A stretch of 30,260 nt of DNA from UHGV virus genome UHGV-0035817; one strand, written 5' to 3'. The position numbers and the translations under genes were made by a program. The stretch comes from a virus. The notes below the pieces were generated by a model. It did not search any database. It saw only the letters and a list, made by a program, of their open reading frames with translations, and was not told where the DNA came from. This document shows, piece by piece, positions 1 to 29,086 of the stretch. Position 1 is the stretch's first letter; every line of letters starts with the position of its first letter.

Positions 1-91
1 ATTGATTCATAAATACTCCCGCTATCAACTGACGCTAGTATAACGGAAGCAAATCATCTGCAATGCATTAAGCAGCAAGCAAATTGAGGAT

Positions 92-135
92 AAAAAAAAC
101 CCCCACATCATGTGGGGGAAGACAGGGATGGTGTC
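92..135. repeat. attL core: 44-bp direct repeat identical to 30187-30230
   Basis: Exact repeat AAAAAAAACCCCCACATCATGTGGGGGAAGACAGGGATGGTGTC at both ends of the phage gene block; contains hairpin CCCCCACAT/ATGTGGGGG next to an A8 run (a T-run terminator on the minus strand). Confidence 0.85.
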
Positions 136-183
136 ACAAAAAAGCACCTAACCTGATGATATAAATGGATTTATATCAAACGC

Positions 184-202
184 TGTCCACATAGCGTCCA
201 CA
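184..202. promoter_or_regulatory. Putative integrase arm-type binding sites (tandem TGTCCACA octamers), left arm
   Basis: TGTCCACATAGCGTCCACA; a near-identical 19-mer occurs at 30083-30101 just inside attR. Both lie in phage DNA flanking the core, as expected for tyrosine-integrase arm sites. Confidence 0.5.
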
Positions 203-212
203 TCGATTACCG

Positions 213-250
213 AAAGCCCCAAGCATATGGGGCTTTATTTTTTTCTTTTT
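213..250 (+). terminator. Rho-independent terminator (AAGCCCCA-loop-TGGGGCTT followed by T-rich run)
   Basis: GC stem and TTATTTTTTTCTTTTTT read directly. In the excised circular phage it would lie downstream of int across attP. Confidence 0.6.
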
Positions 251-297
251 TTAGATGTATAACACTTACTCAACCCAATGTTTATTAAGGATTTTCT

Positions 298-705
298 ATG
301 GCAACTCTTAAATCAATAATGGCAATAACCACCTTAATAATTTCACTCAATGCATACGCAAACACGAATGACATTAAAACTCTTCAAAAACAACTGAAAC
401 CATGGCAACCACTAGAAATCACAGCAAAAGATAGCTCTCTTACCGTTGTTCTCCCTGGTAAAAAAATCACATCTGAAGCCTATAATCATTTAATTATGTC
501 CGGTGTATGCACCCCACTTTGGACACATGACGCTCCTTCTTCATTTTTAAAAAATGTAAGTGAAATCAATATAGTTAACCAATATAAGTCTATTGGATAT
601 ACCTTTGAAGACCCATTGACCACATGCAATGAAATCGCTCCTTTAATGGAAAAACCTGCACAAACAGTGGTGTTATCCAAAACTCATACCTACACAGGTA
701 AGTAA
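298..705 (+). CDS. Hypothetical secreted protein (135 aa), accessory gene between attL and ogr
   Basis: ORF with N-terminal signal-peptide-like segment (MATLKSIMAITTLIISLNAYA then NTND), two Cys; visibly AT-rich versus phage backbone; flanked by hairpin terminators on both sides; no P2 counterpart that I recognise. Confidence 0.6.
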   Translation: MATLKSIMAITTLIISLNAYANTNDIKTLQKQLKPWQPLEITAKDSSLTVVLPGKKITSEAYNHLIMSGVCTPLWTHDAPSSFLKNVSEINIVNQYKSIGYTFEDPLTTCNEIAPLMEKPAQTVVLSKTHTYTGK

Positions 706-723
706 ATAGCTCAAATAAGATAA

Positions 724-752
724 AGCCCCTCGACTGAGGGGCTTTCTGTTTG
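724..752. terminator. Bidirectional hairpin terminator between the accessory gene and ogr
   Basis: AGCCCCTC-GACT-GAGGGGCT with T-rich flanks on both strands; sits 4 bp from the ogr stop. Confidence 0.55.
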
Positions 753-755
753 TAA

Positions 756-974
756 TTACATCCACATAATTTGCTGCCCTGACGGCAACGGATGCGGCCT
801 CACGGCGTGGACTTCTCCCGGCTTCACGATGTATCGCTGTACCGACTCATAAGTGATGAACGTGGCGCTGCAATTCACGTTCTGACACTGGTGATAACGC
901 TCTTTTGTCGTGTCAGTGATATAGCGACTTGTACGCGCATGTGCGGCATGCTGGCATAAAGGACAATGAAACAT
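756..974 (-). CDS. ogr: Late transcription activator Ogr (zinc-finger, 72 aa)
   Basis: MFHCPLCQHAAHARTSRYITDTTKERYHQCQNVNCSATF... matches my recollection of P2 Ogr; ORF track start trimmed to the ATG at 974 (RC of cat 972-974). Confidence 0.9.
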   Translation of the reverse strand: MFHCPLCQHAAHARTSRYITDTTKERYHQCQNVNCSATFITYESVQRYIVKPGEVHAVRPHPLPSGQQIMWM

Positions 975-1055
975 CGCGAGCACCTCTTCCGGTTTTGTTG
1001 ATGGTGCCATTTTAGTTAATTTATCCTTATAAAACAAACAGATAAAATAAAAACA

Positions 1056-2219
1056 TTACTCATCATCTTCGGTTTCGTACTCCACATCAGAAAGCCTGAC
1101 CTCAAGCTCTAAGGACGTCGTGAAGCCGCTATTATTCAGAAAATGTGTCACCTTAGTGATTGTCCAGTCCTGCTCGTCTATGACGCGCTTAAAGCCTGAC
1201 ACTCTGACCGGTGTTTCCGTGTAAATATCAGCACGACCAGTGGCAAGGCTGATGGAGAACTCCGCAACACCCCGTTGCAGCTTATCCCACTTCGCCTGAG
1301 CGGCGCGCATGGCCTGCGCTTTCGTGGCATATACCGTGGTCAGGGCAAAAACGTTGTCAGCCTCACCGGCCATGTATTCACCTTCGCGCGCTTCCGGTAC
1401 TTTTGGCGCTTTCTTCTGCGTGACTGGTTTCGCTTTCGGGTGCTCCAGTGCGCGCAGGTGTTTTTCTTTCTTTTTGCGTTTCAGTTTTACCTTCTGCTTT
1501 TGCGGCTTCGGGTCTTTGGTGTGAAGCCACTTTGCCGTTACGCCGGTATAGGCTCCACGGTCAGCAATCGCAAAATGATGACGATCGCCGTCGCTGCGGG
1601 TGATGGTGACCTGCGGGATTTTTTTACCGCTGGCCGTCACCCCCTGCCCCGCTTTGAGAAACAGCAGTTTTCCCATTTTTACCGACACCTCACCGCCGTT
1701 GCGTTCTGCAAGACGGGTCAGAAATTTCGCATCAGACTCCTGCGACTGGTCGATGTGCGGGATTTTAATTCCGGCCAGTGACGGAGCGACACTGGCTTCC
1801 AGCCTGTTACGGGAGGCTATCGCCTCAACAATCGCACCGAGCGTGGTGTCATGCCATGAGCCTTCACGGCGGGAATTGAGCGTCCCGCGAAAATCTGCAC
1901 TCCGGGCGCGGATGGTGACCACATCCGGTGCGCCCCGGTGTTCAACCTCATCAACGGTAAATTTCCCTTTGCATACCAGGGCAAAACCTTTCCAGCCGAT
2001 ATACACCGTCAGGACAGCGCCACGAACCGGCAGCCCGACCTGCCCGTCGGCATCGTTCAGTTCAATATCAAGCTGGTCAGCCTCAAAGCCCCGGTTATCC
2101 GTCAGGGTCATACTCATCAGACGGTCGCTGATATTGCCGGTAATATCCCTGCTGTCGAGCATCAGCATGTAATCCGGCGTCAGCGTACTGCCTGCATCAA
2201 ATGTCAGTGCATCCAGCAT
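1056..2219 (-). CDS. D: Tail protein D (387 aa)
   Basis: Length and position next to ogr and U as in P2; 387 aa equals P2 gpD length. Confidence 0.85.
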   Translation of the reverse strand: MLDALTFDAGSTLTPDYMLMLDSRDITGNISDRLMSMTLTDNRGFEADQLDIELNDADGQVGLPVRGAVLTVYIGWKGFALVCKGKFTVDEVEHRGAPDVVTIRARSADFRGTLNSRREGSWHDTTLGAIVEAIASRNRLEASVAPSLAGIKIPHIDQSQESDAKFLTRLAERNGGEVSVKMGKLLFLKAGQGVTASGKKIPQVTITRSDGDRHHFAIADRGAYTGVTAKWLHTKDPKPQKQKVKLKRKKKEKHLRALEHPKAKPVTQKKAPKVPEAREGEYMAGEADNVFALTTVYATKAQAMRAAQAKWDKLQRGVAEFSISLATGRADIYTETPVRVSGFKRVIDEQDWTITKVTHFLNNSGFTTSLELEVRLSDVEYETEDDE

Positions 2220-2698
2220 TATCCCGCCCCCGTCATATCCGTGAATTTAGTCGCCATACTGCCAGCCTTACCGATGAGCGATTCCGCCTGTTTACCGATA
2301 TCGCCATAAAGCGCGGCCAGTGATTCATCAACGCGGGTGAGCGACAGCGTAAAATCAATTTTTCGGGGTGTGCCGTCTGCAAAGAAAATACTCCCTGTTT
2401 CATTCACCCTGCTGATGACATACATGCCGTAAATCATGCCAGTGCCATCCAGCAACGGCCACGCCCGACCTTCCTCTGCCATCAGCCTGAGCGTGGTCAT
2501 CGTCAGCTTTCCGCCGGTCAGTTCGGGATAAAGCACGCCGGCAAGCGTGATGTTTTCCTCGCCAACACCGAGAAACTGAAAGGCATCCCGTTTACCGATA
2601 CGGGAATTTGACGGCCAGCGATAATCGGATTCACGCTGCATGGTCTGGTGTGGCAGCGTCTGGCGCATAAAAACAAACATACCTAACGCGAGCATCAT
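2219..2698 (-). CDS. U: Tail protein U (159 aa)
   Basis: Position between T and D, 159 aa as P2 gpU. Confidence 0.8.
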   Translation of the reverse strand: MMLALGMFVFMRQTLPHQTMQRESDYRWPSNSRIGKRDAFQFLGVGEENITLAGVLYPELTGGKLTMTTLRLMAEEGRAWPLLDGTGMIYGMYVISRVNETGSIFFADGTPRKIDFTLSLTRVDESLAALYGDIGKQAESLIGKAGSMATKFTDMTGAG

Positions 2699-2712
2699 TT
2701 TTCGTCACCTCC

Positions 2713-5160
2713 TTAACCGTCATGCATCATGCTGGCACGGGCGCGCGCACGTTTATCCCGCTCGTATTTTTCGAGCGCATCCTGTAACTGGCGGTCAAGC
2801 TGTGCCCCCGGCGCAGTACCACCCGTCAGGCTGATGTGATATTCGTTTTTACTCTGGTCCACATAAGAGCGACCAGCCGGTGCCGTGACCGGCTGATAAG
2901 CCTGATAGCCTGCATAAGAGCTGGTCGCCGGAATATAACCACCGGTGCCATACGTGGCGGCATGAGTCCTTGCGACGGTCTGGTCAAGTGTGTCTGACTC
3001 TTTGTTGATAACCCCGAGTTTTTCCAGTACCCAGTCAATACCGCTGCGCAGTTTGTTGAACGCATTAAGCGGCAGCATCAACGCGTCAGCCAGTGCCTGC
3101 CCGAACATGACGCCCGTGTCACGGCAACGGTTCAGGGTGTCCTGGGTGGCTTTAACCGGGGCAATCAGGTTTTTAAACCACTGCCACGCGGCCTGTAACT
3201 TTTCGCCCAGCCAGTCAAACACCGGCTTCAGTGGCGTGAACAGTTCTCCCACCGGCGCAAATGCCGCTTTCAGCCCTTCCACCACACCGCCAAAGAATGC
3301 GCTGACAGGCTCCCAGTATTTACGGATAAGCAACGCCCCGGCGACAATTGCGGCCACCACGACCACAACCGGCCAGCTAATAGCCCCGATGGCGGTCATA
3401 ACAGCACTGCCAACCGTCGTGAAGACTGCCCCCATTGCGCCTGCTGCCGCGATGATGGCATTGATGCCGGTGATAACCGGCCAGGCTACGAGGCCAATGG
3501 CACCGATGATGCCAGTCAGCGCCAGCGCGCCACCGGCAATGATGCCGATGGTTGACGCCAGTGATTTGTTTTTCTGGATCCAGCCGTCGAGTTTTAACAC
3601 ATACTTTGTGGCCGTCTGCGTGAGCTTACGCAGCGCGCCTTCCTGCTGGTCAAACAGGTCAGTCCCCACTGCCTCATAAGCGGACTGAAACTCTTTAAAG
3701 TCACCGCCTAGGTTGTCCTGCATGATATTTACCAGCTCGGCGGTCTTCCCGTCTGAGGCTTTAAACGCAGCGGTCAGTTTGTCCAGCTTTCCGGTTGAGG
3801 CGGCAGTCATCAGCACGGCGGCGGCTGAGCTGGCCTCCTCCCCGAAAATAGTTTTCATGTATTCAGCCTGCTGGGCAGTACCGAGCCGGTTTTTCTCAAA
3901 ACTGGCCTGCATTTCTTTCAGAATGGTAAATATTGGCCGGGTGTTTCCCTTGCTGTCTGAGGTTTTCACGCCAAGCTCTTTGAGTGCATCCCATGCTTTT
4001 CCCGTCGGTGCCTGCAGGCGGCTTAACACGGCACGGCTTCCCGTCCCCGCCATTGAGCCTGTGATTTTTGCATCATGCAGCGCCCCGACCATTGCGGCGG
4101 TTTCTTCAATGCTGACACCGGCATTTTTTGCCACAGGTGCGGCATAGGTCAGCGCATCGCTCATGCCGTCAAAATCGGCGGCGGTTTTGTTCATCGTCAT
4201 GGAGAGAACATCCCCGATATGAGCGACCTTATCGTTTGAAAGCTGAAAGGCGGATTTCATCCCCATCAGCAGGGCGGCGTTTTCTTCCATCGTGCGGCGG
4301 TTCGCCAGCGCCATATTCAGCGTGACCGGCGTTGCCGCCTGAATGGCATCAACATCCCCACCCGCTTTCGCGATGATTATCTGTGCACCGGCCGCATCAT
4401 CCGCCGAGGCGGCGGTATTGTCGCCGAGCTGGCGCGCCTGTTTGCGTAGTGCGGTCATTTCGGCGGAGTCTTTTGCCACTCCGAGCACGGCCTGCAATTC
4501 TGAGTTTTTCTGCGCAAACTCATAACCGGGCATCAGCAACTTAACTCCGGCCATCGTTCCCGCCGCCGCAATCCCCACACCGGCAGCGCCCACTGAGGCC
4601 ATATTTCCTGCCAGTTCCTTTCCGGCCTGATAACGCTGTTTTACTGCGTTAAGTTTTGCCTGTTGTGCACTGACACGCGCCAGTGCGTCACGCTGACGGT
4701 TAAGCTGTGCGGTGGTTTCACTGATACGGTTTTTCAGTCCCTGCTCATCATGTGCAAGATTGCGGGTATTAATTCCCACAACGGCCAGTTCCCGCTGCTG
4801 GCGTTTAACGGAATCCGTCAGGCGGTTATATTTCGCCTGTAAGTCCTCCGCCGCACGCTTTGCGGATTCCAGCACTTTCGCCTGAGCACGGGTCGGACGT
4901 TCGGTGTTTTTAAACTGTGTGGCAAGGGCTTCGGCCTCCTGCCGAGCCTTTTCAAGTGCATGACCAGTCACGGCGAGCTGTGCACTGGTCTTGCGAAATC
5001 CCTCAATACGGGATGCCTGACCGTTCAGCTCGCGCAGTGATTTTTGTGTTTCCCGGATATCCCCCGACAGCGATTTGCTCGCTGTGCGGATGGATTTAAA
5101 CGGGCGGGATGCCTGGTCAACAGCCCTGAGCAATACCTGTAATTTTACATTGTTACTCAT
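2713..5160 (-). CDS. T: Tail tape measure protein T (815 aa)
   Basis: Long Ala/Gly-rich coiled-coil protein with hydrophobic segment; 815 aa as P2 gpT; start ATG overlaps the E' stop. Confidence 0.9.
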   Translation of the reverse strand: MSNNVKLQVLLRAVDQASRPFKSIRTASKSLSGDIRETQKSLRELNGQASRIEGFRKTSAQLAVTGHALEKARQEAEALATQFKNTERPTRAQAKVLESAKRAAEDLQAKYNRLTDSVKRQQRELAVVGINTRNLAHDEQGLKNRISETTAQLNRQRDALARVSAQQAKLNAVKQRYQAGKELAGNMASVGAAGVGIAAAGTMAGVKLLMPGYEFAQKNSELQAVLGVAKDSAEMTALRKQARQLGDNTAASADDAAGAQIIIAKAGGDVDAIQAATPVTLNMALANRRTMEENAALLMGMKSAFQLSNDKVAHIGDVLSMTMNKTAADFDGMSDALTYAAPVAKNAGVSIEETAAMVGALHDAKITGSMAGTGSRAVLSRLQAPTGKAWDALKELGVKTSDSKGNTRPIFTILKEMQASFEKNRLGTAQQAEYMKTIFGEEASSAAAVLMTAASTGKLDKLTAAFKASDGKTAELVNIMQDNLGGDFKEFQSAYEAVGTDLFDQQEGALRKLTQTATKYVLKLDGWIQKNKSLASTIGIIAGGALALTGIIGAIGLVAWPVITGINAIIAAAGAMGAVFTTVGSAVMTAIGAISWPVVVVVAAIVAGALLIRKYWEPVSAFFGGVVEGLKAAFAPVGELFTPLKPVFDWLGEKLQAAWQWFKNLIAPVKATQDTLNRCRDTGVMFGQALADALMLPLNAFNKLRSGIDWVLEKLGVINKESDTLDQTVARTHAATYGTGGYIPATSSYAGYQAYQPVTAPAGRSYVDQSKNEYHISLTGGTAPGAQLDRQLQDALEKYERDKRARARASMMHDG

Positions 5161-5580
5161 TCGTGTTTCCGCTTCGCCGGAGCGCCTTTTCGCGCCATGT
5201 GATGAGTTCGGTCAGGCTCATGGGATACAGTTCTGATGGCGGCCAGTGAAATATCACTGCCACATCCGCCATCAGGTCATCGACCGAGAGATTTTTCGGA
5301 AACGTCACTGCACCGAGTTCGGCGACAAAAAACCGACCACCTTACCGGCCAGCGCCACAAGGTCAGGCAGTTCCAGCGCGGCGACTTCCTGCTCGGTCAG
5401 CATCGGTGCCGTCATGCGCGGCAGCACCTTAATCAGTGCATCGACTTCAGAGTTCGCGACCGCAGCCAGACTGACACCGCGCAGCGTCCCGGCATTGGGT
5501 TTCATCAGCGTGACCTGTTCGATAACCTGCTCACCACGCTTGACCGGATTGTCCAGGGTAATCACATTTTCTTTGTTCAT
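5153..5580 (-). CDS. E: Tail assembly chaperone E+E' produced by programmed -1 frameshift (~142 aa)
   Basis: Slippery heptamer TTTTTTG on the minus strand (plus coords 5326-5332); the -1 frame continues ...FFVAELGAVTFPKNLSVDDLMADVAVIFHWPPSELYPMSLTELITWREKALRRSGNTNE to a TAA at 5153-5155. Confidence 0.8.
5305..5580 (-). CDS. E: Tail assembly chaperone E (91 aa)
   Basis: ORF ending ...KVVGFLSPNSVQ; contains the T6G slippery site near its 3' end. Confidence 0.85.
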   Translation of the reverse strand: MNKENVITLDNPVKRGEQVIEQVTLMKPNAGTLRGVSLAAVANSEVDALIKVLPRMTAPMLTEQEVAALELPDLVALAGKVVGFLSPNSVQ

Positions 5581-5637
5581 GGTTTTCTCACTTCTGAATC
5601 GGGGGTTAACCGGTCAGCCTGGCTGACCGGATGAAAA

Positions 5638-6156
5638 TCACAGGCCGATATTGCGGCGGTGTTGCTCCAGCCGGTCGACGCCGTTCACCTTCTCAATCAT
5701 GTTGATGGTGTCAATTTCGACCAGCTCCTTACCGTCCATCGTCAGCCGGAAATAGGTGCAGACCACGGAGATTTTCGACTCGGTGTCTTCTCCCTGTTTA
5801 CCCTCACCGGTGTCGATTTCTTTCTGACGGCCACGCATGACCACTTCGACGGCCACCGTTTCGCCGGTATCGTCGCGCTGGTAAGAGCCTGCAAAACGAA
5901 TCGGCACGGCATCCACGCCGGTTGCGGCGTAAAGCTCCCAGATAACCGAATCCGGGAAGCCACCGAGCGACCACTCCATTGACAGCGCATCGTCATCAAG
6001 GCCGAGGTCTACCGGTGCGCTGCCGTTCATCCCCGCACCGCGATAGTTTTCGAGCTTACGGGTCAGTTTTGGTAGCGTGACGGACTTCGCGACGCCCTGA
6101 TAGCTGTAGCCGTTCAGAAAGACGTTCATTAACTTGAGTTTGCGCGGCATTGCCAT
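5638..6156 (-). CDS. FII: Tail tube protein FII (172 aa)
   Basis: Size and position between FI and E as in P2. Confidence 0.85.
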   Translation of the reverse strand: MAMPRKLKLMNVFLNGYSYQGVAKSVTLPKLTRKLENYRGAGMNGSAPVDLGLDDDALSMEWSLGGFPDSVIWELYAATGVDAVPIRFAGSYQRDDTGETVAVEVVMRGRQKEIDTGEGKQGEDTESKISVVCTYFRLTMDGKELVEIDTINMIEKVNGVDRLEQHRRNIGL

Positions 6157-6168
6157 CGGTCAGGCTCC

Positions 6169-7359
6169 TTAATTGCTGTTAACCGAAGTGACCAGATTTG
6201 CCAGGTATTTATCGGTAATACGCTGGCGCAGGGTCAGGTTTTCAAGAGGAGGCACCGGTGTATAGTCGTAGTCGATATACAGTTTTCCGGCCTTGAGGGT
6301 TTCCGCATCGTTGGATTCTTCGCTAAACCAGCAGGTCGCATCCACGATATAGCCGTTTGTTTTCAGCTCACGGAATTTGGCATTGATGCCGTCAACGATG
6401 TCACGAATCAGCGTTGCGGTGATGGGCTTGTCCACCGCCCACATGTGCGCCTCAGCCATCGTGTCGGCCAGCACCTGTGCGGTGCGGGTGTAGTTTTCAA
6501 AGAGGAACAGCGGGTCATCAGAGCAGGTACGGTTACCCCAGAATCGGAAACCGTCGCGGCGAATCAGCGTAGTGACGCCTGACTCGTTAAGCAGGTCAGC
6601 ATCGGTGCCGGACTCCTGCAAATCCCAGAATACAGATGCGCTGATGCCGGTAACACCGTTTACCCCGACGTTGGACAGCGTTTTATGCCAGCCCTGCTCC
6701 TGGTCGATTTTAGCGCGCAGACCCAGCGCACGGGCGGTGGCATACGCGGTGGCGGTGGTACTGGTGACCGTATCCCATGCGAGGAAATCCGGCCAGATGA
6801 CCATCAGCTCACGCTGGCTGAAATTCTGGCGGTAGGCTTTCACCTCGGAAATGGTTTTACAGCCCCATGCGCTGATATATCCGAAAGCGCGCAGCTTCTG
6901 ACAGACTGATGCCAGTGCAACAGCCACCTCTTTGGTATCCAGCCCCGGCACACCAAGAATACGCGGTTTAACACCGGTTACCGACTCCGCCGCCAGCAGG
7001 GCTTTCAGTCCGGTGTACTGACCGTTTTCGTCAGTGGTGCCGATGATATTGGAAACGGTCTGCGCGAGTTTCGTTTCCTCGTCGTCGCCGGTGCCGTCTT
7101 CCACACGCACGACAACGGTGACCGGTTTTGACTGGTCGGCGATGGCCTGCAACGATGCCGCCAGCGTGCCTTTTTTACCGGCCTTTGCAATTGCGCTCTG
7201 CACATTGGTAATCAGCACCGGTTTATTGAGGGGGAAGGTTTCCGCATCCGCATCGCTGGCCGTGCAGACCATGCCGACAATGGCAGTGGATACGGTGGAA
7301 ATGACACGGGTGCCGTCGTTAATCTCCAGCACCTGCACGCCGTGATGATAGTCACTCAT
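6169..7359 (-). CDS. FI: Tail sheath protein FI (396 aa)
   Basis: 396 aa, typical contractile sheath position upstream of tube gene. Confidence 0.9.
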   Translation of the reverse strand: MSDYHHGVQVLEINDGTRVISTVSTAIVGMVCTASDADAETFPLNKPVLITNVQSAIAKAGKKGTLAASLQAIADQSKPVTVVVRVEDGTGDDEETKLAQTVSNIIGTTDENGQYTGLKALLAAESVTGVKPRILGVPGLDTKEVAVALASVCQKLRAFGYISAWGCKTISEVKAYRQNFSQRELMVIWPDFLAWDTVTSTTATAYATARALGLRAKIDQEQGWHKTLSNVGVNGVTGISASVFWDLQESGTDADLLNESGVTTLIRRDGFRFWGNRTCSDDPLFLFENYTRTAQVLADTMAEAHMWAVDKPITATLIRDIVDGINAKFRELKTNGYIVDATCWFSEESNDAETLKAGKLYIDYDYTPVPPLENLTLRQRITDKYLANLVTSVNSN

Positions 7360-7418
7360 CCGTTTAACTCCGTGGTTAATGGGTGAGTGGTATTTTCAGT
7401 TGTGCCGGAGATGTCAGG

Positions 7419-8012
7419 CTATTTGTCCCGGTTGGTTAAGGGATGACACAATTTATTTTTTGTCACTGAGGCGGGGAATTTTTTATAGAGCGTGGACAGG
7501 CCAATATCAAAAATCAGTGCCACGCGTTGACGTGATTCCCCTGCAGCCAGCAACCGCCCGGCCTGCTCCCACTCACTCGCGGTGAGTTTCGGACGTCTGC
7601 CACCAATACGACCTTTGGCTCTGGCCGCCTCCAGTCCGGCGCGTGTCCGCTCGACAATGAGTTCTCGTTCCATTTCAGCCAGGGCACCCATCACATGAAA
7701 GAAAAAACGCCCCATCGGCGTGCTGGTATCAATAGCATCCGTCAGGCTGCGAAAATTAATGCCGCGTTCGCGCAGTTCCTCAACCAGAATGACCAGATGC
7801 CGCATACTACGCCCCAGCCTGTCCAGCTTCCAGACTACCAGAGTGTCACCTGCTGATAATGTTCTGAGCAGTTTTTTTAGTCCCGGTCGGTCGGACTTCG
7901 TGCCGCTGATTTTATCCTCAAAAATCAGCTCACATCCTGCGCACTCCAGCGCGTTACGCTGCAATTCCGTGTTCTGGTCATTTGTTGATACACGAACATA
8001 ACCTATACGCAT
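7419..8012 (-). CDS. Serine-family DNA invertase (Gin/Pin/Hin/Cin family, 197 aa)
   Basis: MRIGYVRVSTNDQNTELQRNAL...DTLVVWKLDRLGRSM...GINFRSLTD.IDTS.PMGRFFFHVMGALAEMERELI.ERT: catalytic Ser in YVRVSTNDQ and C-terminal HTH, very close to Gin as I recall it. Confidence 0.9.
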   Translation of the reverse strand: MRIGYVRVSTNDQNTELQRNALECAGCELIFEDKISGTKSDRPGLKKLLRTLSAGDTLVVWKLDRLGRSMRHLVILVEELRERGINFRSLTDAIDTSTPMGRFFFHVMGALAEMERELIVERTRAGLEAARAKGRIGGRRPKLTASEWEQAGRLLAAGESRQRVALIFDIGLSTLYKKFPASVTKNKLCHPLTNRDK

Positions 8013-8209
8013 AAAAATCCCTATAAAAACAGAATAATGACAGAGAATTATCTATATATGTACAAGCGGACAAGGCTATGGGCACTCAGTTACAGTAATC
8101 TTGCTGGATAAGAATATTTACTGATAGTGGATACATAGCCCACTTAGCATTCCCATGTGAAACAATTAAGTATGGTAAGATAGGTTGACCTCAATAAAAG
8201 GAAAATCTG

Positions 8210-8527
8210 ATGAACATCGATACCAATAAAAAAACCACCACACTGAAATATTTTGTCGAAGCCTATCCAGAGAGAATCACTGTTCAAGCGTGGGAACGCC
8301 TAGTCAATGAAATTGGTGATTTAAAAGAAGTTTATGGATATATCGCCTTTCTGCATGACGATGGGTATCTTACAGGAAAGGTAATCTTCGATGGTTCTCC
8401 TGAAAGTATTGATGGATGGAGTGTAGATACTGCCTCTCTAAGGATTACATCACAAGGTTATCATTATTGGAAAAAATTAAACCCTACAACACAAGGGAGT
8501 AGCGGAATCCTCAGAAGGAACAGATAA
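8210..8527 (+). CDS. Hypothetical protein (105 aa), AT-rich orphan gene between invertase and invertible segment
   Basis: RBS AAAGGAAAATCTG-ATG; AT-rich upstream region; followed by a long hairpin; no similarity I can recognise. Confidence 0.6.
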   Translation: MNIDTNKKTTTLKYFVEAYPERITVQAWERLVNEIGDLKEVYGYIAFLHDDGYLTGKVIFDGSPESIDGWSVDTASLRITSQGYHYWKKLNPTTQGSSGILRRNR

Positions 8528-8533
8528 CTAATA

Positions 8534-8565
8534 AAGATGGTAGCACCATTTGGTGTTACCATCTT
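8534..8565 (+). terminator. Hairpin downstream of the 105-aa ORF (AAGATGGTA...TACCATCTT)
   Basis: 9-bp perfect stem plus extended imperfect stem; no strong T-run, so terminator function is uncertain. Confidence 0.4.
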
Positions 8566-8654
8566 AAAATATACCGTTACAATCAGCACTTTCCATTTTT
8601 ATCTAACAATCAATACTAGGACATTCCCTTCTTTCAACATCATATTTAACCGAT

Positions 8655-8680
8655 TCCATAAAACGTTGGTTTGGGAGAAG
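8655..8680. repeat. Invertase crossover site, left (gix/pix-like 26-bp site)
   Basis: TTCCATAAAACG TT GGTTTGGGAGAA; half-sites resemble the TTATCCAAAACC / TTCCTGTAAACC family; 16/17 match in inverted orientation to 10406-10422. Confidence 0.75.
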
Positions 8681-9132
8681 GTTCTGCGTTGCCTGTTGGC
8701 GTACCAGTTCCTTGGCCTTCAGCTACGCCGCCGACAGGCTGGCTGAAATGCAACGGGGCTGCTTTTTCGGCTGAAGAATACCCGGAGCTGGCAAAGGCTT
8801 ACCCGACAAATAAATTGCCTGATTTACGCGGTGAATTTATTCGTGGCTGGGATGACGGACGTGGAGTGGATGCCGGGCGACAATTATTATCTTCACAGGG
8901 GGATGCAATAAGAAATATTGAGGGATTCGCAGATGGCGGGATCGGCATGTCTTTTGATGCAATCAGAGGGGCTTTTTACGATGCAGGAACACGATCAACG
9001 ACAATGGCGAATAACACAACTGCTATAGGCAAAACCGATGACCTTGGATTCGACGCCTCTCGTGTCGTGCCAACAGCTAATGAAAACCGTCCACGTAACA
9101 TCGCCTTTAATTATATTGTGAGGGCTGCATAA
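8671..9132 (+). CDS. Alternative tail-fibre C-terminal domain (Sv'-like), silent in this orientation
   Basis: ORF without its own ATG or RBS that begins inside the crossover site in frame (…GEGSALPVG…); would be fused to the constant part of H after inversion. Confidence 0.7.
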   Translation: MGEGSALPVGVPVPWPSATPPTGWLKCNGAAFSAEEYPELAKAYPTNKLPDLRGEFIRGWDDGRGVDAGRQLLSSQGDAIRNIEGFADGGIGMSFDAIRGAFYDAGTRSTTMANNTTAIGKTDDLGFDASRVVPTANENRPRNIAFNYIVRAA

Positions 9133-9725
9133 TGAAACCTGTTTTTGATGAAAATGGGCTGGCTACAGTACCGGGTAATATGCGTTGTTTTTATTATGAG
9201 GCAGTTACGTATGAATATACTGGCTGGTCTGATGAATATATTAATACTGGCGTAAGTATGCCCGCTTGTTCCACTGGTATTGACCCGGGCGAATACATTC
9301 CGGGAAGAGTGGCAGTATTTACGGGTAAGGGATGGAGCCATGAAGAAGACCATCGCAATGAGACTGTTTACTCAACAGAAAATGGCGCAGCTGTTACAGT
9401 GGATTATATCGGTGCCATCAAAGACGGTTATGTCACGCTTTCACCGTTAACGCCATACGATAAATGGGATGGTGAGAAATGGGTGACGGATACCGAGGCA
9501 CAGCATAGCGCCGCACTAGACGCGGCAGAAGCACAGCGCCAGTCACTGATTGATGCAGCAATGGCTTCCATTAGTCTGATTCAGCTGAAATTACAGGCCG
9601 GACGGAAACTGACTCAGGCAGAAACAACCCGACTTAACGCCGTGCTGGATTACATTGACGCGGTGACGGCAACAGATACCAGCACCGCGCCGGATGTCAT
9701 CTGGCCTGAACTGCCGGAGGCGTAG
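9132..9725 (+). CDS. Alternative tail-fibre assembly chaperone (U'-like, 197 aa)
   Basis: C-terminus ...[15 protein letters not shown], the typical tail-fibre assembly ending, shared with the convergent gene 9697-10125. Confidence 0.8.
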
Positions 9726-10125
9726 GCCATTCAATATCGGGTGCTGTTGAAGTATCAACACGCATCAGCAGCACACGGTATTTCTTCCATTCGGTGAGAG
9801 TTGAAGTTTCTTCATCAGTTGCGATATCAGCATCAACAGCATCCTGACGCCAGGATATTTCACTGTCAGCTTTTTCCCGTAATTGGGATTTTTTAACTTC
9901 AGCAATAGCTATTAATTCCTTTTTGGTCGGCTGAGGAATATCTATCAGTGCTGGTTTTCCATTCAGTGTTCCAATCTGTTTTCCTGGTGGAATATCCATA
10001 AATAACTTTTTATGTTCTTCCTCACTGACTATTACACCATCATCAGGCCACAGACCTGATGCCTCAAATTTTTCTTTCTCCGATATGGGGAAAAAGCCAT
10101 TTGCTTTAGCGCTCCATACGTACAT
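9697..10125 (-). CDS. Tail-fibre assembly chaperone (gpG/U-like, 142 aa), expressed orientation
   Basis: Immediately downstream of H on the same strand; C-terminus ...[19 protein letters not shown]. Confidence 0.8.
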
Positions 10126-10126
10126 A

Positions 10127-11470
10127 TCAATACCCCACCGCTATAATGTCCACATTAAATCCCCCGGGACCTGCCTGCCAGATGCTGACCCCTGTTAATG
10201 ATTTTGTTTGATGAACAACCGCCACATTTGCTGGCGATAGTGTTTCAGTTGTTACAGTACCGATATCATTCCAGTTAATTGAGATGGAATATTTCGTTGT
10301 TGTAAACGACCGGGGGAAAGTTATGTGTCTTGCATTGGTGCCAACAGGAAATCCAAGATAAACACGCTGAATTATCATTCCTCCAGGTAACATAACCCAG
10401 TTAGCACCTTCTCCAAAACCAAGGTATGCGAGAAGACCAGCCACATCCTTTCCACTCAAATTAGTAAGCGTATTGTCCAGCGGTTGTTTGCCTGCCAGTG
10501 CATTAAGCACTGTTGTTGAAAAGTTAGGGTCATTCCCCAGCGCCGCCGCCAGTTCATTCAGTGTATCCAGTGCCGCAGGGGCAGAACCCACCATTGCCGC
10601 AATTGCTGATTTCACAAAAGCCGTGGTGGCAATCTGTGTATTGTTGACCGACTGTGCCGCAGTAGGTGCTGTTGGCGTTCCGGTAAGTGCGGGACTCGAC
10701 AGCGGCGCTTTCAGTGCCAGCGCATTGTTAATGGTGGTGCTGAATTTCGGGTCATTGTTAATGGCTGCGGCAATTTCTTTCAGTGTGTCCAGCGTGGCTG
10801 GCGCGCCGTTAATCAGAGCGGTAATAGCGGCCTGAACAAACTCAGTGGTCGCAATCCGCGTGGTGTTATTCCCTGCGGCAGGCGTCGGCGCTTTTGGTTC
10901 TCCGGTAAATGTCGGATTATGTTTCTGTGCATACTGGGTATGAGGATCCTGTGCGGCAATGTGGTTTCTCATCTGGTCATCCACATACAGCCTTAATTCC
11001 AGGACTTCATCATCCACGTATTTACGGGTCGCCAGTACCACCGACGGGTCGATTTTCAGCGTGATGGCTTCGGTATTCGTGACAACCAGAATCATGCGGA
11101 TAGTCTGGGTACGACCACTGCCTTCCTGTAACTGCGGTTTGTACGTTTCCGGGCAGTTCGCCACCGCAATGAGTACGCCTTCATCATCATAAAGCCCAAT
11201 CTCACGGATCCAGAATCCGCCCTCGTTCTCAGGGATGATTTGCTCCGCAATAATCTGGCTCTGGTTGTTCGGGTCAACACTCAGAAGATTCAGCGGCGCG
11301 ATGCGTTTCTGGTTAATCAGTTTTGTCTGTGCCGGGTCTGGTGTCGGCAAGACACCATTCGCATCACCAACGGCCATTTGCGTCAGATTCAGCTTACTGC
11401 CGAGCATCGTCGCGTTAGCCAGCCGTGCTGCGCCCTGATTAGTCAGAATGGCGTAGTATTTCACTGTCAT
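10127..11470 (-). CDS. H: Tail fibre protein H (447 aa in current orientation)
   Basis: N-terminal region resembles P2 gpH (…[13 protein letters not shown]…YKP…EGSGR…), internal fibre repeats ([16 protein letters not shown]); C-terminal ~100 aa lies within the invertible segment. Confidence 0.85.
10409..10434. repeat. Invertase crossover site, right (inside H)
   Basis: TTCTCCAAAACC AA GGTATGCGAGAA; lies in the H reading frame at the motif LGFGEG. Confidence 0.75.
10505..10880. repeat. Diverged tandem repeat inside H encoding two copies of a ~45-aa fibre repeat
   Basis: Protein repeats [35 protein letters not shown] / [35 protein letters not shown]; coordinates approximate. Confidence 0.5.
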
Positions 11471-12078
11471 GCGTTTACTCTCAGGTTATCAATTAAATGA
11501 ATGGCCGAGGCCGGGAAATAATCCCCTCCGACAATAATGGCCTCCGGGGTGTAGGGATAAACCGTCAGGGCGTCGCCGTGATAGCATCCCGCACCGGCAA
11601 AAATGTTGCCGGTTGTACTTAAGCTGATAGCCAGTCCCGTCAGATGGCGGCTTGCCGGTTTTGCATCAGCAACGAGGCGCTCCAGCTCCTGATACATTTC
11701 CTCGGTAATACCCTGCTCAAGCACACCAACAACGATACGGAACGTCCCCGGCTCCTCGTTGAGCTGCCACCACTCCCTTACCTCAATCAGATAGCCGAGC
11801 GGCTCCACCACACGCCGGATTGCGCCTATAGTGCCCTTATGGCAGTGAATGAAATACGCATCGCGGATAACAGCGCGTTTTGTCGCTTCCGGCCATTTAT
11901 CATCCCAGCGGTCAACCGAAAATGACCACGCCAGCCACGGCAGCAGATTTGCCGGACAGGTATCCGGGTTCCACAGCTCACGAATACTGACCGGCGTTTT
12001 TTCAATTTCCGCACAGGCTTTTGCGGCGGCGACTTCAAGCGGTGATGAGCCGGTCGGCAGCAGTCGCGAATCACTCAT
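11467..12078 (-). CDS. I: Baseplate assembly protein I
   Basis: Position between J and H; 203 aa here versus about 176 aa as I recall P2 gpI, so the start may be internal. Confidence 0.75.
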   Translation of the reverse strand: MSDSRLLPTGSSPLEVAAAKACAEIEKTPVSIRELWNPDTCPANLLPWLAWSFSVDRWDDKWPEATKRAVIRDAYFIHCHKGTIGAIRRVVEPLGYLIEVREWWQLNEEPGTFRIVVGVLEQGITEEMYQELERLVADAKPASRHLTGLAISLSTTGNIFAGAGCYHGDALTVYPYTPEAIIVGGDYFPASAIHLIDNLRVNA

Positions 12079-12979
12079 CCGAGCCTCCGGTCACGACGCG
12101 GTATTCGGTACAGAAAGACGCCTGCGTATTGTTGAGCACGATGTCGGCCAGCGGTGCAGCCAGTTCGACACGCTGCACGCCTTCCACATGCAAAGCGGCA
12201 TAAATGGCAGACAGACGGATGTCGCGCCCCAGCCGGTGCTGTGCCGTGATATACGCTTCCAGTTTTTTCACGGCGGCAGCGCGAATGGGTTCGCTTTCGG
12301 GACCAGGGTAAAGATACAGCGTGGCGTTTATCTGGTATTCAACGATGGCGGCAGACTGCACGGTCACGCGGTCGGCCACCGGTCTGACGTCCTCGCCATT
12401 CAGGGCGTTACGCACCACCGCCAGCAGGTCTTCGGAAGCGACACCGTTATTTTCACGTGACAGCACAGAGATGGTGACACAGGCCGGAGACGGACTGGTG
12501 ACAGAGATATCCGCGACACGCCCGTCGGCACTGCGGCCATGATACTGATAGGCACCCACCGACCCGGCGACGCTTAAACCTTCAAACGCCTGCTGAATAC
12601 GCAGACGATAATCAGTGTCAGATTCCATTACTGCCGGTGTCGGCGGGATGGTCGAATCATCTGCCGGGGTGATAATCAGGCGCGTGGTGTTGTAATTGGC
12701 ACCAATCACATCAAGGTCATTACCGGCTGCACAGGCCAGCATCACCGCCCGTGCAGCCTCATTCACACGCTGACGCCAGATAAGCTCGCGATACGCATTT
12801 TCCTCCAGCAGTTTGACGAGAGGCTCGGATTCCAGCGTCAGGGTACGGGCGACCGCCTCCTGCTGGTCTTCCGGGTAAAGGGAAATCAGTGTCGCCTTGC
12901 GTTCGGCGAGAATGGTTTCAAAGTCCAGCTCCTCGACCACATCCGGTGCGGGTAGCTGGTTCAGGTCGATAATCGGCAT
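12071..12979 (-). CDS. J: Baseplate protein J (302 aa)
   Basis: 302 aa, position as in P2. Confidence 0.85.
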   Translation of the reverse strand: MPIIDLNQLPAPDVVEELDFETILAERKATLISLYPEDQQEAVARTLTLESEPLVKLLEENAYRELIWRQRVNEAARAVMLACAAGNDLDVIGANYNTTRLIITPADDSTIPPTPAVMESDTDYRLRIQQAFEGLSVAGSVGAYQYHGRSADGRVADISVTSPSPACVTISVLSRENNGVASEDLLAVVRNALNGEDVRPVADRVTVQSAAIVEYQINATLYLYPGPESEPIRAAAVKKLEAYITAQHRLGRDIRLSAIYAALHVEGVQRVELAAPLADIVLNNTQASFCTEYRVVTGGSDE

Positions 12980-23210: not shown

Positions 23211-23213
23211 ACA

Positions 23214-23238
23214 TCGCCGCCTGCGGGCGGCTTTTTTA
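23214..23238 (+). terminator. Rho-independent terminator of the P-Q operon
   Basis: GCCGCC-TGCG-GGCGGC followed by TTTTTT. Confidence 0.8.
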
Positions 23239-23379
23239 CACCCCGTCATCACGCCCTCACACGCTCACCACCGCGCAAAACAGCCCGCAGACAAACCAAC
23301 GCCCCGGCGCACAATCTAAACGCCATTACGACGCGCTGAGACGCTGAAAAAATAAAATCAGCACCACCGCCAGCGCGCA

Positions 23380-23398
23380 GTGCTTTCCCCGCCTCGCC
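23380..23398. other. cos site (19-nt cohesive end)
   Basis: GTGCTTTCCCCGCCTCGCC is the reverse complement of GGCGAGGCGGGGAAAGCAC, the P2 cohesive-end sequence as I recall it. Confidence 0.8.
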
Positions 23399-23683
23399 CG
23401 CCCGCTTCACGGGGCGGTTTTAATGCAGTTGCATAGATACTATGGATCCGCACCAGTCCTGACCGCACGCAGCCTGAACGGACATCCCCAACGCATGCAA
23501 AAACATTCACTTGTTGCATGCATAGCTTTTTAAGTACGCCATACCGCAACTGTACATTTTTAAGCAATTGGCAACCTTAAAAAATTTACATTGCTTTCAA
23601 GACCTTATCATCCGTAGTCTCTGTTTTTTACTTTGAGCTACATCAATAAAATCTCAAACATGTTTAATGCAAAGCCCTTGTTA

Positions 23684-23737
23684 CACAACATAGAATGTAT
23701 GTCTAGAAACAACGACATACTATATGTTGTGTTTTTC
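23684..23737 (+). ncRNA. Long imperfect hairpin (about 17 bp paired) followed by T5; candidate small RNA 3' end or terminator
   Basis: ACACAACATAGAATGTATGTC ... GACATACTATATGTTGTGT then TTTTT; lies ~450 bp past the P-Q terminator, so it ends some other short transcript. Confidence 0.35.
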
Positions 23738-23876
23738 CGGCTCTCTGTTCGGTGATATGCCAAATCACTTTGCGTTTAAACAGAGCATTATTTCAGGGCA
23801 AGACTTCGCTCAAAAGTCATTCCACCTAAGAAGCGCATATACCGGTGGAAGTTGCCCTCTACTTACAGGAGGCAAT

Positions 23877-23990
23877 ATGAAGAAATGCTATTACTGCATT
23901 CTCGTTCTGGCCCTCTTTGGCTATCCAAACGGTAGTCCGAGTGGTTTGTCAGTAAACGTCAGTAATATCAATGTCAGCATTATGCTTTAA
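23877..23990 (+). CDS. Small ORF (37 aa) with hydrophobic N-terminus
   Basis: AGGAGG 4 nt upstream of ATG; MKKCYYCILVLALFGYPNGSPSGLSVNVSNINVSIML; stop is followed within ~15 bp by a strong bidirectional terminator. Confidence 0.4.
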   Translation: MKKCYYCILVLALFGYPNGSPSGLSVNVSNINVSIML

Positions 23991-24002
23991 TATGCTTCAA
24001 AC

Positions 24003-24033
24003 AAAAAAACCACCTGCCAGGGTGGTTTTTTTG
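24003..24033. terminator. Bidirectional rho-independent terminator (A7-ACCACC...GGTGGT-T7)
   Basis: GC hairpin flanked by A-run and T-run; terminates the small ORF on plus and probably the A operon on minus. Confidence 0.75.
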
Positions 24034-24292
24034 CGCCCATCATCAATACGATGAAAGACTGACAAGACTTCGCTCAAGACGAATTATGCGTCGACATAAG
24101 GTTACCCGCAATGATTTTATTAGACTAAATGGATGGCCTTTTATGACCCGGATCAAACGGCTGTCCTTACCGACATGCTAGTCACTCAATAGCATTTAGC
24201 CTTCTAATTCAGCATGCTATTGACCTTCTGCTGCCCCATAACTGCTCCGCATAAGCCATTCAATGCCATATCAAATCACGTTGTGTTTTTAC

Positions 24293-26569: not shown

Positions 26570-26834
26570 ATGAGCCAAAAGCCTCTGAACAACGCTTGCT
26601 GAGTTGCTCAACCTGCGCGTTTAAATCAGCAAAAGATTTTGCGCTTCCGGTCAGAATATCGTGATGCATCAGGCCGGAAACGAGCTGGCCTAATTTCGGG
26701 TAATAACCAACCACCGCCAGCCATTCCTGACCGGCGTTTTTACCGCTTTCCGCTCTCTTTTTCTCGTGGAGAATAAACTGAAAGCTGTCACTGGTAACGA
26801 CATAACGTTTGCCAATTTCAATACGAATACTCAT
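26559..26834 (-). CDS. Small early protein (P2 orf83-like position, 91 aa)
   Basis: Position between the zinc-finger ORF and A; function unknown. Confidence 0.6.
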   Translation of the reverse strand: MSIRIEIGKRYVVTSDSFQFILHEKKRAESGKNAGQEWLAVVGYYPKLGQLVSGLMHHDILTGSAKSFADLNAQVEQLSKRCSEAFGSYGR

Positions 26835-27055
26835 GCCGTTCTCCGGTAATGTTTGTTTTTTGCTTCAAAGACTGACTGGCAGGAAACACAACGCGTGGCT
26901 GACGGATAAGCCGCACGACGGGCAGCAGGTATTGGCGCGTCACACTCTTCGCAAACCAGCGCAGAAACACCGCAATGTTTTACCCTTGCCGCGTTAATCT
27001 GGCGCTCCAGTAATTCAGCCTGTTGTTCCTGAATGAAATCTACGTTGTCCGGCAT
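26831..27055 (-). CDS. DksA/TraR-type C4 zinc-finger protein (74 aa)
   Basis: CGVSALVCEECDAPIP...CVSCQ: four-cysteine motif typical of phage TraR/DksA-like proteins; P2 orf82-like position. Confidence 0.7.
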   Translation of the reverse strand: MPDNVDFIQEQQAELLERQINAARVKHCGVSALVCEECDAPIPAARRAAYPSATRCVSCQSVFEAKNKHYRRTA

Positions 27056-27360
27056 TACCAGTTCCTTTTGTCGTTCAGTTTCTTAAATTCATCAGCGCAA
27101 TAGCTGGCGAGTTCTGTCGTTAATTTTGTCAGTTCATCCACTGAGGAAATTTGCCTGTGAAATACAGCGCGTTTCACAAGTAAATTGATCACATCAGACA
27201 GGAGGTTTAATTCGCTCTGATAAATCGCGATAACAGATTCAGTTATGTCGCGCTTTTCTTTATCAAGACCAAGTTGAATAAGAGACAAATCGCCATTTTC
27301 CATAACAGCGATTTTTAAGGCGTTATTCAGTAATACAACCGAACGAGAACAGGACATCAA
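27055..27360 (-). CDS. Small early protein (101 aa)
   Basis: ORF in the early operon between B and A, translationally coupled to neighbours. Confidence 0.6.
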
Positions 27361-27581
27361 AGCACCTCCCCGCGAGACAATCCGATATTGTGAAATTTTT
27401 CCGACTCCTGACTGAGCAGCTCAACTATCTCCACGCGGGATAACTCCGCCTTTGTGATGTGGCGAATCATGGCGTCAAGATGAGAAGAAAAGCGCGTCGC
27501 AGCGTCGGCCTGTGCTTCGGTTCTGGCCTGTTGCAGCAGTAATGCGTATTTACCGCACTGATTTTCAGAAACTGTATGCAT
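27357..27581 (-). CDS. Small early protein (74 aa)
   Basis: ORF in the early operon directly downstream of B. Confidence 0.6.
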
Positions 27582-27644
27582 GACTTTCTCCAGGCAAAAA
27601 GAAGCCCCGCACGATTAAGTGCGTTAAAAACTCTGGTTAATTAT

Positions 27645-28151
27645 TTAATGCAGATATTGCTCTGGTTTTACCGACGTCAGAATTGTCGGTGCATACTCAA
27701 AAAGACTGAATAATTCACGTAATGCACGGAATAAAGCATCACGCCAGTAACATGATTCTTCATTAATTCGCCAGTACGGCTGATTGAATTCTTTTTCTGT
27801 CAATCCCGCATGCATAAATAAAGTACGACGCTGACTGACTGTTAAAAAACTAATATATGCATACTCACTTGCGCCGACCTGACGGCGTTTTGAGAATGCG
27901 CCACGCAATTCATCAATTGCACAAACCAGTCGTTCACGTTCGACGTCGTTCATTTCTTCAAAACGCATCGTTGCGTGACGCTGTTTTAACTGTGCATGAA
28001 AGCAAACCGTTAGCCGTTCGCGCTCCATCATCTGATTATAATAATCACATGTATCCTGCCAGCGAGGGACGGCAAGATGCTTGCCAATTATCCGGCGCAT
28101 AGCTGCTGGCTGTTTTTCAACGAGATTGAGCGTCATCACTGTCATTTCCAT
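27645..28151 (-). CDS. B: Replication protein B (helicase-loader-like, 168 aa)
   Basis: Size and position between cox and A as P2 gpB. Confidence 0.8.
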   Translation of the reverse strand: MEMTVMTLNLVEKQPAAMRRIIGKHLAVPRWQDTCDYYNQMMERERLTVCFHAQLKQRHATMRFEEMNDVERERLVCAIDELRGAFSKRRQVGASEYAYISFLTVSQRRTLFMHAGLTEKEFNQPYWRINEESCYWRDALFRALRELFSLFEYAPTILTSVKPEQYLH

Positions 28152-28312
28152 ACCCTCCGGCTTTTCAGAAAGGTCAGAGCCTTTTTTAACGGACTCTGTT
28201 TTTTGGTGCGGATAATGATTCCCTTACGCCCCTTACCGTGGGTGATGGTGAAGTCAATCGCCCTGGGGCTTTCGTTACGCAATAACTGAGCAATACAACG
28301 CGACTCATTCAT
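28142..28312 (-). CDS. Small early protein (56 aa) between cox and B
   Basis: Start trimmed to MNESRCIAQLL (ATG at 28312), placing the start just downstream of the cox stop. Confidence 0.5.
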   Translation of the reverse strand: MNESRCIAQLLRNESPRAIDFTITHGKGRKGIIIRTKKQSPLKKALTFLKSRRVWK

Positions 28313-28314
28313 AA

Positions 28315-29017: not shown

Positions 29018-29086
29018 CTCTATATAAAGATTACATTTTCACCATTTGCTACCAAGATGGTGAATACAGCGCCGGAGGGCTTTCTT

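Follow-up and report, generated by a model that had tools for sequence, protein, structure and literature searches.

A single-gene AT-rich cassette in the Z/fun slot of a P2-like Escherichia coli prophage encodes a predicted winged-helix protein

Organization of the locus

UHGV virus genome UHGV-0035817, the 30,260-nucleotide (nt) stretch of DNA analyzed here and called the window below, is a P2-like Escherichia coli prophage with a backbone GC content of ~55%. The 642-bp region at 8013–8654 of the window is 100% identical to a chromosome stretch of E. coli strain elppa4 (L001), in which the prophage adjoins the host genes fieF and pfkA. A first-pass annotation, made from the letters alone, had described this region as a self-contained AT-rich cassette, separately acquired at the P2 Z/fun position and carrying an orphan gene of 105 amino acids (aa) with a candidate anti-phage or superinfection-exclusion function. 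On balance, we read the cassette (~8033–8660) as a moron that is expressed in the lysogen from its own promoter and encodes a winged-helix binding protein with an accessory role.

The orphan open reading frame (ORF) was found as first annotated, at 8210–8527 on the plus strand with an ATG start, and is identical to a gene annotated by RefSeq as hypothetical protein WP_025210643.1 in elppa4. Its product is predicted to consist of a winged helix (residues ~5–90) and a disordered basic tail (residues 91–105, ending in ...SSGILRRNR). Seven nucleotides before the ATG lies the Shine-Dalgarno sequence AAGGA (8198–8202, plus strand), part of an AAAAGGA that is invariant in four aligned loci. Upstream of the ORF, a consensus two-hexamer scan returned no −35/−10 pair. 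A putative extended −10 promoter element, TGgTAAGAT (8173–8181, plus strand), is conserved in two diverged Citrobacter loci, where it reads TGGTAAAAT and TGATAAAAT (L003 and L007) within upstream DNA that is otherwise hardly alignable. The ribosome-binding site and AT-rich upstream region proposed earlier are thus both present, and the promoter would be of the extended −10 type with a short leader instead of a −35/−10 pair. No P2 late-promoter (Ogr) site was seen by eye upstream of the ORF. A LexA-box-like sequence at 8117–8139 was dropped, since its CAG triplet is mismatched and the sequence lacks conservation in Citrobacter.

Six nucleotides past the stop codon, the long hairpin of the first-pass annotation was recovered as a 14-bp stem at 8534–8565 (ΔG −22.5 kcal/mol, z = −6.2 on the plus strand), with none of 200 shuffles folding as well. 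It folds on the minus strand too, with a better U tract there (UUUAUUAGUUAU) and an A tract on the other side. The hairpin is probably a bidirectional terminator shared by the orphan gene and the convergent late tail-fibre (V) operon; P2 has its annotated V-operon terminator at the corresponding spot beside fun(Z). An Rfam search over the hairpin gave far-sub-threshold matches alone. GC-rich hairpins that differ in sequence follow four of the five homologues examined (L007, L011, L012 and L015). Together, these signals support the description of the cassette as self-contained.

Comparison with the P2 reference bore out the proposed position. In P2, fun(Z) is the sole gene between G and FI; it is oriented against the late genes and lies beside the annotated V-operon terminator. 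The late tail genes of the window run on the minus strand in the order tail fibre H (10127–11470; Phage_tail_fib, 1e-62), tail-fibre assembly gene (9697–10125; Caudo_TAP, 1e-33) and, further on, the tail sheath FI (6169–7359), tube, tape measure and D, with the H and assembly genes being the expressed copies. The window counterpart of the fun(Z) interval holds three things, namely an invertible tail-fibre segment, a serine invertase gene and the AT-rich stretch between these, so that the cassette lies between the tail-fibre assembly gene G and the tail-sheath gene FI, opposite to the late genes. The status of this slot as a defence-gene hot spot is also correct. In P2-like phages, Z/fun is the second defence-enriched locus, where three newly discovered systems and fun were found (Vassallo et al. 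2022, PMC9519451), and it is also given as defence-enriched in PMC13586616. According to two published screens, a large part of the mobile anti-phage repertoire of E. coli resides in P2-like prophages, and Z/fun is the less explored of their two hot spots (PMC9519451).

The cassette is an insertion

As first annotated, the composition of the cassette is visibly unlike that of the backbone. GC content is 0.37–0.39 in the cassette (0.37–0.38 across 8000–8600), compared to 0.51–0.59 in the flanking tail genes and ~55% in the backbone; all members of the protein family described below have genes of 35–41% GC, whatever the host. Comparison of the same locus across related prophages identified empty-site alleles in L016 and L017 (PEC395 and YJ6). 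Both keep the FI-invertase arrangement, an intact invertase (carried by empty-site prophages at 92–96% DNA identity over the matched stretches) and the two-cassette invertible segment, and only ~62 bp separate the invertase ATG from the crossover site (4595–4660 in L016/L017). Of this short leader, the ~20 bp beside the invertase ATG alone remain similar in the window, where the AT-rich divergent intergenic region (8013–8209, GC 0.37) stands in its place. The AT-rich 3′ flank that runs from the hairpin to the crossover site (8566–8662) is likewise absent from the empty-site alleles. Among 5,426 complete E. coli genomes, the FI-invertase junction was found in 581 and the cassette in 24. Since empty-site prophages exist and the cassette is so much rarer than the junction, the ~0.6 kb is a later insertion that replaced the short leader of the invertase, in line with the separate acquisition proposed earlier. 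The cassette therefore shows two marks of a moron, that is, insertion between elements that are adjacent in relatives (L016/L017) and deviant base composition.

The cassette is independent of the inversion system

The neighbor of the cassette on the FI side is, as claimed before, a serine DNA invertase of the Gin/Pin/Hin type (7419–8012, minus strand, 197 aa; Resolvase, 4.4e-52; HTH_7, 5.1e-13). Its gene is divergent from the orphan gene and lies outside the cassette proper, and its N-terminus MRIGYVRVSTNDQ contains the catalytic Ser. On the other side, the left crossover site (8663–8685; reverse complement TTCTCCCAAACC-AA-CGTTTTATGG) forms an inverted repeat with the right crossover site (10403–10425), which lies inside H, and the two are 87% complementary. 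Between them, the invertible segment carries on the plus strand a silent alternative tail-fibre C-terminus (8671–9132; Collar domain, 1e-15) and the assembly chaperone of this silent fibre end (9132–9725; Caudo_TAP, 1e-27).

The prophage of elppa4 is an exact flip isomer of the window, in which the silent fibre cassette is joined to the tail-fibre gene. Window positions 7400–8682 and 10403–11500 are collinear and 8666–10425 are inverted at 99.8–99.9% identity, which places the breakpoints within 8666–8682 and at 10403–10425. Because 7400–8682 stays collinear in the flip isomer, the cassette lies outside the invertible DNA, in agreement with the first-pass placement outside both crossover sites. 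Other carriers show both orientations and many different fibre cassettes beside an identical orphan gene. The invertase is therefore active and the orphan cassette, which is fixed in orientation and does not lie between the crossover sites, is not a shufflon element. Inversion still takes place in cassette-bearing prophages despite the replaced invertase leader, although no convincing sigma-70 promoter for the invertase passed the scan of the minus strand of 8013–8209. A Din-type invertase thus keeps working after a 0.6-kb insertion between its own gene and its crossover site.

Two rearrangements involving invertase sequences were observed on the side. In the E. coli contig UCYW01000017.1 (GCA_900479805.1, L023; locus 1–12318), P2-like baseplate and fibre genes (W, J, I and H) lie on one side of FI, the invertase and the orphan gene, Mu-like baseplate genes (Gp48, Gp46 and Gp45 families) lie on the other, H is inverted relative to the window and the window stretch 8572–8680 is present twice. 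Such a layout would fit either recombination by the invertase at crossover sites from two different prophages or a multi-site inversion system. Separately, the 95-aa metagenomic/assembly protein P0008 is an in-frame chimera of the ~51 N-terminal residues of a Pin-type invertase and residues 28–75 of a Citrobacter-type orphan protein, joined at a shared 'WK'. In the window, the invertase and orphan genes are on opposite strands, and P0008 may be either an assembly artefact or a real rearrangement.

Coding evidence, family and predicted fold

An ORF of at least 105 aa arose in 20 of 2,000 dinucleotide-preserving shuffles of the 642 bp (1%), which alone is mildly significant. The Citrobacter homologues share 76% and 67% protein identity with the orphan protein, and dN/dS was 0.22 against a Citrobacter homologue at dS = 0.64, 0.20–0.27 in the unsaturated pairs (window/L002, window/L003 and L002/L003) and 0.245 for L011/L012. 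Conserved residues include M1, I3, P20, L48, W70, R78 and G83. These values point to a real gene under purifying selection.

The family is small, comprising ~20 sequence clusters. A direct search of 5.8 billion proteins yielded five clusters, an exhaustive profile search of 1.84 billion representatives gave 14 matches, three of them artefacts, and profile searching gave 16 clusters. The long matches P0013, P0017 and P0018, which include an insect-allergen repeat protein, were considered as domain fusions and rejected as artefacts of repeats or low sequence complexity. Wherever the source is named, it belongs to the Enterobacterales (Escherichia, Salmonella, Citrobacter, Pantoea, Cronobacter, Lonsdalea and Kosakonia). 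PHROG 3983, a family of unknown function, was matched by 19 of 20 aligned members (best E 8.8e-11), with the window protein itself giving a weak but collinear match over residues 2–86 (E 0.18). The view of this protein as an orphan without a recognizable motif consequently holds with respect to Pfam, NCBIfam and PADLOC, but it is no pure orphan, having a family of ~20 clusters, a PHROG and a YjcQ-like predicted fold. A scan of IMG/VR with the close alignment found four loci, the GTDB species-representative genomes contained no relative, blastn of the region against the deposited phage collection gave no match, and literature searches on the accessions and the PHROG identifier returned nothing. 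Profile and structure searches found no homology to a structural or housekeeping phage protein, and on this count the anti-phage hypothesis survives.

With an alignment of six close sequences, AlphaFold gave an unusable model (pLDDT 50), and a 20-sequence alignment was used instead (pLDDT 84, pTM 0.73). In the resulting model, three helices are followed by a two-stranded wing and a fourth helix, and residues 91–105 are disordered. Conserved P20, L48-H-D50, G56, F60, W70, R78 and G83 group at the end of helix 3, the wing and the strand after the wing, and the family motifs are YLHD, PW and SIRIxAxG. The third helix (KEVYGYIAFLHDD), the would-be DNA reader, is hydrophobic or acidic, and across the family the isoelectric point is 4.5–7.0 and the net charge is 0 to −12. 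Three types of C-terminal tail occur (G[ILM]LRRxR, RAAAIL and TLPFSP); by analogy, we conjecture that they are short interaction or protease-recognition motifs.

The model suggests a stand-alone winged helix closest to YjcQ-like proteins. YjcQ (PF09639; PDB 2hgc) and DUF2513 (PF10711) are stand-alone winged helices of ~80–100 aa with a C-terminal helix, as is the predicted orphan protein. Six of 20 family members gave weak, collinear, sub-threshold matches to YjcQ (best E 0.0047) and the window protein none; the best match among those with bit scores, P0022, reached 16.0 bits against a gathering threshold of 23.3, and DUF2513 reached 13.4 bits against 29.6. As the threshold is not reached, and with the family having its own conserved motifs and basic tail, the orphan protein is not filed under Pfam YjcQ. 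Searches of PDB sequences with the family profile and with P0022 gave chance matches or none. MarR-type proteins differ in carrying N- and C-terminal dimerisation helices on the winged helix (~140 aa) and in binding palindromic DNA. No functional study of YjcQ or DUF2513 was found in the literature.

No enzymatic domain was found in the orphan protein, and no hydrophobic or membrane segment either (maximum Kyte-Doolittle value 0.51 in a 19-residue window; polar N-terminus MNIDTNKKTTT). A superinfection-exclusion protein of the membrane or periplasmic type (Imm, Sp, Cor or SieA/B) was considered and rejected, as neither a signal peptide nor a lipobox nor a transmembrane helix is present; the lack of a membrane segment rules out the usual exclusion proteins that sit in the membrane or mask a receptor.

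Occurrence in other phages

The exact protein is encoded on more than 700 E. coli contigs, and in all eight of the E. coli places retrieved the orphan gene lies between the FI/invertase side and the invertible segment. In Citrobacter, two further prophage types carry the homologue at their outer edge, convergent with the tail-fibre assembly gene. In the first it lies beside DinI and a UmuD-like gene and is followed by an inverted assembly-gene remnant, and in the second it borders host cytochrome bc1 genes. Distant members stand singly on the opposite strand, between the lysis cassette and the terminase genes of lambdoid prophages, and one is located on a Kosakonia conjugative plasmid, the sole plasmid match. 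No recurring partner gene was found, with neighbors varying among DinI, an 83-aa ORF, KTSC, YfbU, terminase and lysis genes. This is the distribution of a moron spreading with or beside recombining late-gene modules.

The Citrobacter remnant was observed as a 49-aa inverted piece of assembly gene (…INWPEYP…) directly after the homologue, at 8341–8490 on the plus strand in L005/L006 and at ~8440–8480 in L003. As happens in live invertible segments, this piece and the 3′ end of the intact assembly gene overlap, and the locus looks like a decayed invertible system that retained the orphan gene.

Other AT-rich and orphan loci of the window

Leaving aside the invertible segment and the early/immunity region (~26800–30000, moderately AT-rich), the low-GC stretches of the window are the old/tin gap, the cassette in the Z/fun slot and the left end (1–800). 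The classical P2 defence hot spot at the old/tin position is essentially empty, consisting of a 1.08-kb gap (23211–24292) between the end of portal gene Q (23210) and replication gene A (24293–26611), with no ORF longer than 88 aa and a GC content of 39.5% at 23601–24000. A second orphan, a 135-aa ORF at 298–705 (plus strand, GC 36–40%), lies at the prophage edge between host fieF and prophage ogrK; it is the gene annotated by RefSeq as hypothetical protein WP_000212592.1 in elppa4 and has no Pfam or PADLOC match. Two DUF5405 paralogues (26559–26834 and 27055–27360, minus strand; 4e-13 and 2e-32) lie ~220 bp apart in the early region just after the start of replication gene A, and the first copy overlaps the 5′ end of A.

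Discussion

The closest organizational counterpart of the cassette is P2 fun(Z), a non-essential, variably present accessory gene that occupies the same slot on the opposite strand, in convergent orientation to the late V operon and with a terminator beside it. The two products have no sequence similarity and differ in size (528 aa for Fun(Z) compared to 105 aa), and the window slot additionally carries the invertase and the invertible segment. The orphan protein also has no match in PADLOC-DB 2.0.0, which postdates the study of Vassallo et al. (PMC9519451).

Further likenesses come from more distant systems. Classical phage morons include bor and lom of lambda and the sopE cassette of SopE-phi. 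The orphan cassette shares with these the probable promoter-gene-terminator unit, the deviant composition and the insertion at a junction that is uninterrupted in relatives; as with sopE, one and the same cassette is found beside the tail-fibre genes of unrelated phage types, and the lysis-terminase slot of the distant members is presumably that of lambda bor. It differs in that its product is neither a membrane protein or lipoprotein nor a secreted effector, and in that its expression in the lysogen is a prediction. The G segment with gin and mom in Mu and the C segment with cin in P1 likewise place a Din-family invertase beside an invertible tail-fibre segment with paired S- and U-type genes and have an accessory gene on the far side of the recombination machinery. 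In the window, by contrast, the accessory gene sits between the invertase gene and the crossover site, which stand ~62 bp apart in empty-site relatives. Moron architecture and the slot itself were already known; new here are the assignment of this family to moron slots and its fold class.

We propose that a horizontally acquired unit consisting of an extended −10 element, ribosome-binding site, 105-aa ORF and hairpin terminator was inserted between the invertase gene and the crossover site, and that the orphan gene would be transcribed in the lysogen from its own promoter, apart from the late operons. The product would be a soluble cytoplasmic protein with one YjcQ/DUF2513-like winged helix and a short, disordered arginine-rich tail. 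Having no catalytic or membrane domain, it would have to act by binding, and because the domain is neutral to acidic family-wide, a specific DNA operator would be a less likely partner than a protein or a nucleic acid touched by way of the basic tail. The orphan gene is unrelated to the inversion machinery and to virion structure, and an accessory function that benefits the lysogen is its most likely biological role. Given the published enrichment of the Z/fun slot in defence genes, the likeliest single role would be interference with a superinfecting phage by binding and blocking one of its proteins or regulatory elements, a tentative proposal for which position is the basis. Direct tests exclude or disfavor membrane-type exclusion, membership of known defence families and a part in fibre switching.

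Several points weigh against this reading. Single-gene defence proteins with experimental validation tend to be larger than this one and to contain an effector domain. It is not obvious how a 105-aa binding module would kill or arrest. H-NS frequently silences AT-rich islands in E. coli. With respect to expression, the cassette has a conserved extended −10 element and a strong hairpin, but conservation is what identifies TGgTAAGAT as a probable promoter, the scan returned no −35/−10 pair and the plus-strand U tract is poor, so the hairpin may chiefly end the late operon. The window protein matched no Pfam or NCBIfam family above threshold, and none of the families of PADLOC-DB 2.0.0 (2023) was matched by it (E ≤ 10) or by six other members spanning the alignment (E ≤ 1). 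A tblastn search of 50,697 deposited phage genomes with the orphan protein and the distant member P0012 found no match, so there is no phenotype to borrow. Finally, a hot-spot position is a weak prior for a defence function, as the genes in such hot spots are mostly hypothetical and untested according to Vassallo et al. (PMC9519451).

Other explanations were weighed against the same observations. If the winged helix read an operator, the protein would be a DNA-binding transcription factor regulating prophage genes (the divergent invertase or its own promoter) or host genes, a regulator of lysogenic conversion and not a defence protein. We regard this as unlikely, considering that family members, with a net charge of 0 to −12, are neutral to acidic, that the third helix lacks conserved basic or polar DNA-reading residues and that the dimerisation helices of MarR are absent at 105 aa. 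Nor was a conserved upstream palindrome seen; homologues occur without an invertase, in unrelated neighborhoods and with no conserved target gene, and inversion goes on with the cassette as it does in many prophages that lack it. A small, acidic, non-enzymatic, single-domain protein with variable disordered tails of three types, resembling short interaction or degradation motifs, and with a patchy, phage-borne distribution would also suit a counter-defence or host-takeover function, in which an inhibitor made from a constitutive promoter at DNA entry and in the lysogen neutralizes a host or rival-element protein, much like anti-restriction or anti-CRISPR proteins. The anti-restriction mom operon of Mu likewise follows the invertase gene gin. 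The orphan gene, however, lies on the opposite strand at the end of a late operon, whereas P2-type phages place early functions in the early region; its position fits lysogen-expressed morons such as fun(Z), and no similarity to characterized inhibitors was found. We consider counter-defence distinctly doubtful.

The gene could also be an effectively functionless hitch-hiker, selfish or decaying, that moves along with recombining tail-fibre modules. Its closest homologues invariably neighbor tail-fibre or assembly genes, and phages are known to exchange such genes. In Citrobacter (L005/L006), the homologue is followed by the remnant of an inverted assembly gene. The cassette is also rare, being carried by 24 of the 581 P2-like prophages with the invertase in complete E. 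coli genomes. Purifying selection (dN/dS ~0.2 at dS 0.64), the conserved start codon, ribosome-binding site and promoter element, the exact protein on more than 700 contigs and the intact distant members in other slots make this improbable. Least probable is a part in tail-fibre switching, whether as a shufflon cassette, a fibre chaperone or a recombination directionality factor. The orphan gene does directly adjoin the invertase gene and crossover site, but it lies outside the inverted DNA and has no Caudo_TAP, Collar or fibre homology; 557 of the 581 invertase-bearing P2-like prophages lack the cassette, L016 and L017 retaining an intact invertase and two-cassette segment, and distant homologues are found far from tail genes.

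Within the preferred reading of a lysogen-expressed moron, a more speculative version is that the cassette represents a new single-gene, non-enzymatic anti-phage factor, in which the lysogen makes a YjcQ-like winged helix that would bind an important protein, or a regulatory nucleic acid, of the incoming phage and whose interchangeable C-terminal tail would set the target or the turnover of the protein. We think this rather unlikely. Should the cassette have no phenotype, it would be one more hypothetical moron, and a hypothetical gene in the Z/fun slot is no surprise to a specialist. As a 0.6-kb single-gene candidate, it is easy to clone and comes with natural controls in the form of empty-site prophages and flip isomers. 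Any phenotype would assign a function to the PHROG 3983 family, and an anti-phage activity, if true, would be the first function for PHROG 3983 and a lead for the widespread YjcQ/DUF2513 phage proteins.

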